20,000 bases of DNA from an uncultured virus (IMG/VR IMGVR_UViG_3300025771_000019) (lineage: Duplodnaviria; Heunggongvirae; Uroviricota; Caudoviricetes). Below are positions 18,605-20,000 of the stretch, one piece after another. Both the position numbers and the translations under genes were made by a program. The notes under the pieces were generated by a model. The model did not search any database and was not told the origin of the DNA. It saw only the letters and a list, made by a program, of their open reading frames with translations. The first letter of the stretch is position 1, and every line of letters begins with the position of its first letter. Where the stretch lies: the IMG/VR virus record IMGVR_UViG_3300025771_000019. The stretch is one strand, 5' to 3'.

Positions 18605-19570
18605 ATGGAACTACTCACATTGTGGAGCCTTGTCGGCTTCCTGCTTGCTGCATATGCGGTTATAGCGAACGATTCAGTGCAAACTCTCGGCACGTGGATG
18701 GCATCTAACAATGAGAGATTTAACTATAAAGTACTATGGGCAGCGGCTTCTGCTGTTCTTCTAGCAACACTCTGGTACGGTTGGAGTGTTAATGGTGGCG
18801 ACATTAGTTATGGCCGTTTGAATAAGATCCCGTGGCAAGAAGTACAATGGTACCACGCCGCAGCACCAGCTATTCTTGTTGCTTTAACACGAATTGGTGT
18901 ACCAGTTTCAACATCATTCTTAGTTCTATCAGTATTTGCTTCAACCTTTGTGTTGGAAAAAATGTTGATGAAATCTATTATGGGTTATGGCGTAGCAGCC
19001 TTATTTGCTTACGCAGTATGGTTTGCCATTAATAAGTTTGCTCATAAATGGTTTGATGAAACTCAGCCAGTAAGTGAAGATAATAAACGTTTTTGGCGGA
19101 TTGCTCAGTGGGTTGCTACTGGCGGATTGTGGTGGACTTGGTTGTCACATGACATGGCAAACATTGCGGTATTCCTCCCGCGTCAAGTACCTGTAGATCT
19201 TATGATTTTGATCTCATTTGTATTTGTCGGTGGTTTGTTCTTTATGTTTAGAGAACGTGGTGGTAAGATCCAACAAATCGTTTTGGAAAAACATAACACA
19301 AGATATGTTCGTTCAGCTACGTTGATTGACTTATTCTATTGGTTGTGTTTATACTTCTTTAAAGAGCTAAACGATATTCCTATGAGTACAACTTGGGTAT
19401 TCGTTGGTTTGCTAGCAGGTCGTGAACTTGCGATGGCTACATACTTTGGTAAGAAGAAAACAAAATCTGTATTTCCTCTTGTAGCGAAAGACTTTGGAAA
19501 GATGATGGTAGGACTTGGAGCTTCAGTTGCTCTTGTACTAATGGTACATTACATTATCAATCCAGTGTGA
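18605..19570 (+). CDS. multi-pass membrane protein, distant PiT (inorganic phosphate/anion transporter)-like
   Basis: About 9-10 hydrophobic segments; repeated motifs ANDSVQ / SHDMAN and PVSTS / PMSTT resemble the two PiT signature repeats. Confidence 0.65.
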   Translation: MELLTLWSLVGFLLAAYAVIANDSVQTLGTWMASNNERFNYKVLWAAASAVLLATLWYGWSVNGGDISYGRLNKIPWQEVQWYHAAAPAILVALTRIGVPVSTSFLVLSVFASTFVLEKMLMKSIMGYGVAALFAYAVWFAINKFAHKWFDETQPVSEDNKRFWRIAQWVATGGLWWTWLSHDMANIAVFLPRQVPVDLMILISFVFVGGLFFMFRERGGKIQQIVLEKHNTRYVRSATLIDLFYWLCLYFFKELNDIPMSTTWVFVGLLAGRELAMATYFGKKKTKSVFPLVAKDFGKMMVGLGASVALVLMVHYIINPV

Positions 19571-19599
19571 CATTTTTGTCAAGTAAAAAAATTTTACAG

Positions 19600-19624
19600 A
19601 AGGGGTTGACATTCAACTCCTTTT
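19600..19624 (+). terminator. intrinsic terminator overlapping the tmRNA promoter
   Basis: AGGGGTTGA-CAT-TCAACTCCT followed by T residues; contains TTGACA (19606-19611) with TGt-TATATA 17 nt downstream. Confidence 0.6.
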
Positions 19625-19640
19625 GTGTTATATATAAAAA

Positions 19641-20000
19641 GTGGACGTTGAAACAAGATAAAGACGGATCGGACCGCGGGGCAGTACCGCGCACCTCCAC
19701 CATAAACACATGAGGATATAATGAATTGGGATTGGCACTGGATAAGTTGGTTTAAAGGAACACCTTTTCAATGGGGTGAATTTAGATTTAATAGTGGCAA
19801 TCCATATAAAAGTTATAGATTTGGACCATTACTTATTCGTGTGTTTATGATGGGGGTGAAATAGGATCGACGAACGGAATAGTTGAGTGGAGTTCACCGT
19901 GTTGACCTACGTTATTCGGTCAAACAAACTAAATGCAAACGATAACTTTGCACCATCTGGTTACGCACTAGCTGCATAACACAGGGGGTTGGCCACTTAC
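19641..20000 (+). ncRNA. ssrA: circularly permuted two-piece tmRNA (alphaproteobacterial type), truncated by the window end
   Basis: The acceptor piece comes first (T-arm CGCGG-GGCAGTA-CCGCG, then CACCTCC-A-CCA ending 19702). The intervening segment is 19703-19851. The coding piece starts GGGGGTGAAATAGGATCGAC at 19852, giving a 7-bp acceptor stem with G3-U70. Tag frame 19935-19979 = ANDNFAPSGYALAA-stop. The 5' boundary is approximate. Confidence 0.92.
19721..19864 (+). CDS. putative 47-aa aromatic-rich microprotein inside the tmRNA intervening segment
   Basis: GAGGA SD at 19712-19716, ATG at 19721, MNWDWHWISWFKGTPFQWGEFRFNSGNPYKSYRFGPLLIRVFMMGVK, TAG at 19862-19864. Confidence 0.5.
   Translation: MNWDWHWISWFKGTPFQWGEFRFNSGNPYKSYRFGPLLIRVFMMGVK

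Follow-up and report, generated by a model that had tools for sequence, protein, structure and literature searches.

A conserved small-protein gene in the intervening segment of a permuted phage tmRNA

The last few hundred nucleotides of a 20,000-nt stretch of DNA from an uncultured virus of the Caudoviricetes (IMG/VR record IMGVR_UViG_3300025771_000019; the whole stretch is hereafter called the window) hold a permuted transfer-messenger RNA (tmRNA) gene with an open reading frame (ORF) in its intervening segment. ARAGORN called the permuted tmRNA at 19610–20070, beyond the contig end at 20000, with the tag ANDNFAPSGYALAA. The Rfam model RF04321 matched 19641–19979 at 120.7 bits (cut-off 47; E = 1.6e-23), the acceptor piece preceding the coding piece, and RF01849 matched the same permuted tmRNA at 98.1 bits (cut-off 50). 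Delimited from the RF04321 alignment (model positions 1–62) and ARAGORN, the acceptor piece (19641–19702, + strand) comprises the T-arm, the 3′ strand of the acceptor stem (CACCTCC, 19692–19698), a discriminator A and CCA (19700–19702). The coding piece (19852–20000, + strand) begins with G1 at 19852 and is truncated by the contig end; its tag frame (19935–19979) ends in a hydrophobic ...ALAA followed by the stop codon TAA, and the full 3′ part of the tmRNA is visible in a near-identical locus, L240. In the acceptor stem, GGGGGTG (19852–19858) pairs with CACCTCC, placing G3 opposite T19696, and the stem is followed by the A and the encoded CCA. A G3–U pair is an alanine identity element.

A putative promoter of the pre-tmRNA lies at 19608–19638 (+ strand), where we read TTGACA (19608–19613), 17 nt and TATATA (19631–19636) from the sequence. 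TTGACA with an AT-rich box also stands 5′ of the tmRNA in four other loci (L240, L284, L248 and L283). A promoter consensus scan did not list the box at 19608–19638 because its −10 element lacks T at position 6. The Rfam alpha_tmRNA match starts at 19602. A terminator-like hairpin of 15 pairs followed by TTATATATAA (19595–19627, + strand) overlaps the −35 region of the putative promoter.

Between CCA and G1 lies an intervening segment of 149 nt (19703–19851, + strand), which both Rfam models handle as an insertion and within which no Rfam family matches. By the known maturation of permuted tmRNAs, in which RNase P cuts at G1 and the 3′ end is trimmed to CCA, this segment is absent from the mature tmRNA. 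It is closed by a stem of 14 bp with two G–U pairs (5′ strand 19701–19714, 3′ strand 19836–19849, both on the + strand), found in both the minimum free energy and the centroid fold. In the minimum free energy fold from RNAfold, the closing stem carries on from the acceptor helix without a break (−59 kcal/mol, z −6.7; none of 200 shuffles equalled it). A Shine–Dalgarno (SD) sequence, GAGGA (19712–19716, + strand), stands 4 nt 5′ of an ATG and has its first three bases within the closing stem; folding of the precursor places G19712–G19714 of the SD, and also the AUG, in base pairs, so that both are predicted to be partly buried. The sequence CATGAGGATATAATG is unchanged across the aligned spacer-located copies. 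The ORF itself (MNWDWHWISWFKGTPFQWGEFRFNSGNPYKSYRFGPLLIRVFMMGVK; 19721–19864, + strand) has 47 codons, among them five for Trp, six for Phe and two for Tyr, and runs from the ATG at 19721 to a TAG at 19862–19864. Codons 1–42 (19721–19846) form a conserved core, whereas codons 43–47 and the TAG are set by the junction and the 5′ end of the tmRNA, the TAG being tmRNA positions 11–13. The 3′ strand of the closing stem also codes for ORF residues I39-R-V-F-M43. The initial annotation of this DNA had described the stem, a segment of about 149 nt, the GAGGA, the 47-codon ORF and an ORF end lying inside the mature tmRNA, and each was confirmed at its position.

Using a third-position-degenerate DNA pattern for residues 10–21, we identified orthologues at 31 loci in viral contigs, which hold 32 ORF copies (31 of full length) with 14 distinct nucleotide sequences; a protein search returned 26 clusters at 73–96% identity. 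Across the 14 distinct sequences, variable sites at codon positions 1, 2 and 3 numbered 1, 4 and 14. Leaving out the stretch fixed by the search pattern, they numbered 1, 4 and 11, that is, 11 of 16 at third positions (P = 0.004). Summed over 91 pairs, the proportion of synonymous differences (pS) was 0.226 and that of non-synonymous differences (pN) 0.026. Comparing intervening segments for the ORF, its SD and codon-level conservation, as the initial annotation had suggested, thus came out in favour of a gene: the ORF is kept, pN/pS is 0.12 and none of the 31 full-length copies carries a frameshift. Mean nucleotide identity in 16 distinct tmRNA contexts (120 pairs) was 95.7% in the intervening segment, 78% in the acceptor piece and 76% in the coding piece. 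We considered horizontal mobility as the cause of this high conservation and set it aside, since a pS of 0.23 is close to the divergence of the flanks; purifying selection accounts for the conservation and mobility is not needed. Judged by these substitution patterns, the ORF is a genuine gene whose peptide is under purifying selection.

A family profile built from orthologues of the window peptide and searched against 1.84 billion representative proteins matched, over the whole core of about 42 residues, 41 clusters at E ≤ 1e-3 and 12 at E ≤ 1e-10. The matched proteins have 41–209 residues, mostly 41–112, the longest being a single weak match. The family motif is WF.G.PF.W...FN.G.PY..YR.GPL.IRV. 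Conservation is strongest in the C-terminal half, where N24, G26, P28, Y29, Y32, R33 and P36–F42 are invariant; in a diverse alignment (A3), N24, G26 and R33 are almost invariant, and W3, W5 and W7 are lost in the wider family. Homologues at 35–66% amino-acid identity occur in unrelated nucleotide contexts that have no closing stem. No family in Pfam or PHROGs matches the window peptide, which is basic and aromatic, is predicted to be all-β and contains no hydrophobic stretch. A type I toxin-like membrane peptide was therefore rejected, as there is no hydrophobic transmembrane helix.

With alignment A3, AlphaFold2 (AF2) gave a confident four-strand antiparallel β-meander (predicted local distance difference test (pLDDT) 88.1; strands at residues 2–7, 16–24, 27–34 and 37–42); a shallow alignment (A2) gave a poor model (pLDDT 49.5). 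Fold searches with Foldseek against the PDB returned nothing significant (best E 1.2), nor did a search of BFVD (best E 0.42), and the ESM Atlas held only unnamed clusters (0.79–0.80). The best match from VIA-align covered 44 residues of a TolB propeller blade (Z 4.3; root-mean-square deviation 3.1) and lies under the tool's quoted noise level. Such weak matches to single propeller blades suggest that the modelled protein might self-assemble into a propeller-like ring.

Most members of the family stand apart from tmRNA genes. A scan of viral contigs with the family motif yielded 61 loci, of which 13 had a tmRNA called by ARAGORN within 500 nt and 48 had none. Rfam likewise found no tmRNA at 15 representative complete loci of divergent subfamilies or at L250, a locus truncated where its contig stops (16 of 20 scanned), and no tRNA gene was found at any of 20 divergent-subfamily loci. 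The neighbours of free-standing members are varied early genes, including DNA and RNA ligases, polynucleotide kinase, thymidylate synthase and helicase, with no single recurrent partner gene among them. The members that dwell in spacers form the MNWDWHW subfamily. As most of the distant members are free-standing small genes on viral contigs, the protein does not appear to need the tmRNA; judged by genomic context, this small phage protein stands by itself in the majority of lineages.

Relocations of the ORF have also happened among its closer relatives. In L109 (1474–2434), two copies of the ORF (137 nt, 99% identical) flank thyX (PF02511), between a phage lysozyme gene upstream and a purM-like gene, and an exact 24-nt repeat at both junctions consists of the last codons of one gene with the SD and start of the next. 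In L089 (1436–1624), an ORF cassette with remnants of the bases on the CCA side and the G1 side sits between 14-nt direct repeats that include the start of the next gene, which looks like the footprint of an insertion. L083 keeps the ORF beside a tmRNA that is merely vestigial. L107 (1061–2047) has two copies of the acceptor piece (40 nt, 95% identical), the first of them followed by the ORF; the opposite strand carries an HNH endonuclease gene (PF01844, 22.6 bits), and then comes a working beta-type permuted tmRNA with a 32-nt, ORF-free intervening segment that has the same stem and a 10-nt loop. The same closing stem also occurs on ORF-free short segments, both in this second tmRNA copy and in L014 (30 nt).

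Genes of other kinds occupy the same position in other phages. A scan of viral contigs with the G1 motif found at least 80 loci, and 78 of those listed, plus the window, had a recognisable acceptor end; the counts that follow are all among the matches listed. The 57 distinct viral intervening segments measured 27–293 nt (median 85 nt), 16 of them being at least 100 nt long, and in 9 of these 16 a sense ORF covered at least 80% of the segment. The same motif in cellular genomes gave 101 distinct segments of 3–174 nt (median 34 nt); two reached 100 nt and neither held such an ORF. Several unrelated ORFs fill the viral loops, beginning just 3′ of the 5′ stem strand and preceded by an SD, and three of the eight ORF types stop inside the segment. 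Between L036 and L062, the ORF in the segment has diverged with dN 0.16 and dS 1.33 (non-synonymous and synonymous divergence, respectively), while the ORFs of L057 (97 aa) and L008 (77 aa) have full-length homologues at 54–98% and 48–92% identity. By these comparisons, other phage intervening segments carry other conserved ORFs. The name ‘uncharacterized protein Veg’, given by JGI to one homologue of the L057 ORF, was set aside, there being no Pfam match behind it. By eye, the ORFs of L008, L031 and L036 look membrane-like.

The 3′ end of the window ORF varies among its relatives. The 27 distinct contexts of the ORF divide into 16 in which it reads across G1, two in which it has its own stop inside the intervening segment, eight that lie outside a working segment and one that is cut by a contig end. 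Where the ORF reads across G1, its first in-frame stop lies 11–13 nt (once 25 nt) inside the mature tmRNA. This TAG is an invariant part of the 5′ end of alpha-type tmRNAs and belongs to the motif GGGGGYGAAATAGGATCGACG or GAAATAGG, which is also found in at least 120 cellular tmRNA loci that have no ORF. The residues after F42 in tmRNA contexts are MMGVK, MMGAN, LRGAK/N or MRGSK; in L104 the TAG is missing and the tail reads LRGVIGIDW, and outside tmRNAs the tails are LKELSK, IVEASSL, MVEANG and LRG, with different stops. In a variant of one protein cluster (P0004) that has no stop at tmRNA positions 11–13, gene calling extended the frame across the tmRNA as far as the last residue of the tag (...ANDETFALAA), for a product of 82 aa.

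The nearest relatives, the L240 group (five loci), share the promoter, acceptor piece and tag of the window, with 367 of 379 aligned bases identical, and differ by a single 18-nt indel at the 3′ end of the intervening segment. Their 18 extra bases (...ATTCG TGTGTTTATG TAAGCACA TGTGTTTATG AT GGGGG) double the 10-nt sequence TGTGTTTATG of the 3′ strand of the closing stem as a direct repeat, making the segment 167 nt as against 149 nt in the window. The second copy of TGTGTTTATG forms a perfect 12-bp closing stem, and the ORF of this group ends at its own TAA 17 nt 5′ of G1. In L284, too, the ORF has its own TAA in the intervening segment, followed by about 100 nt of additional, G+C-richer sequence before the 3′ strand of the stem. 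The window ORF lacks its own stop because its final codons merge into the stem strand, the 18-nt difference from the sister allele lying between the 10-nt repeats. The initial annotation had supposed that processing would remove the stop codon. Following sequence logic this holds in the window and in 16 of 18 distinct contexts within intervening segments, but it is not a conserved property of the relatives: stop loss on processing, as predicted from these alleles, is the commonest form and is made by the junction. Ending inside the mature RNA therefore looks like a by-product of the junction rather than a proven switch, although the read-through form could have some side effect on peptide output.

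Taking these observations together, we consider it likely that the loop of the intervening segment provides a slot for a gene in a strongly transcribed precursor, which serves first as mRNA and then as the precursor of tmRNA. Following this logic, the tmRNA promoter would yield a single precursor with two uses. Ribosomes would load at the GAGGA and AUG during transcription, when the 3′ strand of the closing stem has yet to be made, and would produce a small, basic, aromatic β-sheet protein of about 42 residues. Once the RNA had folded, the stem and the acceptor helix would partly bury the SD and AUG, and the precursor would be matured to a two-piece tmRNA and the spacer discarded. The ORF of the window runs on to the invariant TAG at tmRNA positions 11–13. 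The protein itself probably acts on its own, independently of the tmRNA, because the family mostly stands alone in T4-like aquatic phages. The data show the anatomy of the locus, selection on the protein, its family, the variable endings and the cargo of other intervening segments; the timing of translation and processing and this independence of function are inferred. The initial annotation had raised a small cargo gene at a highly transcribed site as one of its options, and it is this option that purifying selection, the mostly free-standing family and the other conserved ORFs in intervening segments support.

Several observations weigh against the gene-slot reading. An ORF of equal or greater length arose in 107 of 2,000 dinucleotide-preserving shuffles of the loop (5%), and for this reason the reality of the ORF is argued from its conservation rather than its length. 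The ORF types of L007 and L031 stand as candidate genes, degenerate scans of viral contigs having given identical contigs only and no diverged orthologues. The read-through form, present in 16 of 18 distinct contexts within intervening segments, is stable and widespread. Members of the family occur at tmRNA genes in three layouts, namely inside the intervening segment, in the 5′ leader (L283 and L247) and beside vestigial or duplicated acceptor pieces (L248 and L107), and this repeated placement hints at a functional tie that a pure cargo reading does not predict. Contigs from RNA libraries count in favour of the slot, but they bear on presence only and may include DNA. We found 17–42% of the sampled sequence words in 24 sequencing runs (21 of them recorded as RNA) and examined four. 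Two runs, X2 and X3, each gave one 241-nt contig that spans 19678–19848, including the T-arm, CCA, SD and ORF, with CCA bridged into the ORF; both contigs then continue as the L284 allele, with its roughly 100-nt extra sequence at their loose ends. One X3 contig corresponds to the short-loop form seen in L107, in which the closing stem and a 10-nt loop replace the ORF. Such precursors, or DNA of the same structure, are present in these libraries; the contigs do not speak to RNA ends, strand or translation, and gaps in cover and differences in depth carry no weight.

The placement at tmRNA genes could mean that the β-protein acts on the tmRNA, SmpB, the ribosome or tag-directed proteolysis and is kept within or beside tmRNA genes for co-production. 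The MNWDWHW type lies in the intervening segment in 18 distinct contexts, and the protein is basic and aromatic. L247 and L283, the latter from another subfamily, carry a family member in the 5′ leader immediately before the acceptor piece, and in L248 the ORF and a vestigial acceptor-like hairpin stand 5′ of a complete tmRNA. However, the 48 of 61 motif loci without a tmRNA within 500 nt, all 15 complete representative loci scanned with Rfam and the cut locus L250 run counter to such a tie, as do the varied early genes beside free-standing members (the ligases, polynucleotide kinase, thymidylate synthases and helicase), the unrelated ORFs in other intervening segments and a fold with no match indicating RNA or ribosome binding. 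On balance we regard a functional tie as unlikely. The tmRNA of L248, about 300 nt 3′ of the family ORF, is itself permuted, with the tag ANDNFKPELSFDFDGVLEAA, and its intervening segment holds, by eye, an unrelated 43-codon ORF with an SD.

A more elaborate proposal would cast the β-protein as a partner or modulator of trans-translation that the phage itself supplies and that joined tmRNA genes on at least two occasions, in the spacer and in the 5′ leader. Synthesis from the read-through allele would then be capped by maturation of the tmRNA, with late ribosomes running off the cut RNA and their product being tagged. We hold this to be a speculative and rather improbable scenario; if true, one RNA would be a messenger, the precursor of a stable RNA and a substrate of the pathway of its own product.

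The initial annotation had also envisaged a sensor or feedback circuit, in which cleavage by RNase P at G1 leaves the spacer as a non-stop mRNA whose later peptide is tagged and destroyed, coupling peptide output to tmRNA maturation and activity. The position of the stop inside the mature tmRNA, in the window and in 16 of 18 distinct spacer contexts, is what such a circuit would use, and by sequence logic a ribosome ending there would cover G1–G7, making translation and folding of the acceptor helix mutually exclusive. Yet the stop is the invariant TAG of GAAATAGG, a motif that at least 120 cellular tmRNA loci have with no ORF at all, and the tail past F42 is unconserved. The L240 group and L284 have their own TAA in the intervening segment, eight of the 27 contexts lie outside a working segment, copies outside tmRNAs use other stops, and three of the eight ORF types in intervening segments (among the matches listed) stop inside them. 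As a conserved, designed feature the circuit is thus not borne out, and we think it improbable as an explanation of the ORF.

Still less can be said for a leader peptide in which pausing at five Trp codons governs the closing stem, and hence tmRNA maturation, in the manner of attenuation. All five Trp codons fall within the first 18 and the ORF covers the 3′ strand of the stem; however, the entire peptide is conserved, chiefly in its C-terminal half, the wider family does not retain W3, W5 and W7, and the free-standing homologues and confident fold point to a protein product, all of which makes the leader very unlikely. That the spacer is only a conserved structured RNA with a chance reading frame, as its strong fold (z −6.7) and an ORF length reached in 5% of shuffles might suggest, is scarcely credible given the third-position bias and pN/pS of 0.12, the homologues (35–66% identity) in unrelated contexts without the stem, an alignment that supports a confident protein fold and the lack of any Rfam family inside the segment.

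Returning to the gene slot on the tmRNA precursor, its parts have counterparts in known systems. The two-piece tmRNAs of Alphaproteobacteria and aquatic myophages (RF01849 and RF04321; OM43 phage Melnitz and pelagimyophages), in the part of the source available (PMC9004378), have the same order of acceptor piece, CCA, intervening segment and G1 coding piece, and they share the stem extending the acceptor helix, the G3–U pair, an ANDN...ALAA tag and a site near early genes in T4-like phages. The accessible text of the Melnitz paper covers the two-piece tmRNAs of phages, reports a glutamine riboswitch at the 3′ domain and mentions no spacer ORF (PMC9004378). The intervening segment of the window differs from these in its length, 149 nt against a cellular median of 34 nt (101 genes, among the matches listed), and in encoding a protein under selection. 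The nearest analogue is the intervening sequence of Coxiella burnetii 23S rRNA, which carries an S23p ORF and is, as far as the portion of the paper available tells, likewise a stem-closed, ORF-bearing segment removed from the precursor of a stable RNA (PMC4990558). It differs in its host RNA and processing and in its unrelated protein family. In the same portion it is described as selfish and S23p is suggested not to be made (PMC4990558), in contrast to the window protein, which by our estimates is under purifying selection. Membership of the window peptide in the S23p family was rejected, no Pfam family matching at E ≤ 1.

Group I introns, some with homing-endonuclease genes, are recorded in the T-loop of tmRNA genes in the available sections of a 2025 tmRNA database paper (PMC11915505) and are likewise protein-coding inserts absent from the mature RNA. 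The intervening segment of the window differs from them in having no ribozyme, another site and no nuclease, and its removal would use ordinary tRNA-type processing; no intron family was among the Rfam gathering-score matches in the window, and a group I intron was accordingly discarded as a candidate. The same sections of that paper list a tRNA-Ala gene and a repetitive element as non-coding cargo of intervening segments and do not mention protein-coding cargo (PMC11915505); such segments also show a tolerance of large inserts, the cargo there being RNA or repeats. A Ribo-seq paper on S. meliloti, as far as its accessible text goes, treats the tag frame only (PMC10117765). In full-text searches, with supplementary files and many subscription papers outside their reach, no paper turned up that describes an ORF coding for a protein within the intervening segment of a tmRNA.

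A discarded spacer of a tmRNA precursor therefore carries a selected protein gene, and other genes fill that loop in related phages. Precursors of stable RNAs usually count as non-coding and are masked by annotation pipelines. The arrangement exposes a blind spot for small-protein discovery and would give phage genomes, in the spacer, a compact expression site with strong transcription, one transcript having two successive uses. It also opens to ordinary tests a well-defined, widespread and uncharacterised β-protein family of about 42 residues in aquatic T4-like phages, and the 149-nt and 167-nt alleles lend themselves, as a natural pair, to the question of whether an ORF that runs on into the mature tmRNA differs in peptide output.

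The window is the final 20 kb of a 62,138-bp viral contig with an estimated completeness of about 29%. Matches to PHROGs identify a T4-like myophage, among them a gp43-type DNA polymerase, SbcCD-like gp46/47, the late sigma factor gp55, UvsY, topoisomerase II subunits and the tail tube. Against 50,697 isolate phage records in GenBank, blastn with the tmRNA region gave no match and tblastn with the window peptide gave a single match at E = 7, so that the gene is missing from these records at that sensitivity. Immediately 5′ of the putative tmRNA promoter lies an ORF of 321 aa (18605–19570, + strand) with no PHROG or Pfam match, which by eye resembles a multi-pass membrane protein and which, among the retrieved loci, is common only to the identical L088. 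At the other end of the window, ARAGORN and Rfam place three clustered tRNA genes of the phage, for Leu(TAA), Thr(TGT) and Arg(TCT), on the − strand at 1699–1953.

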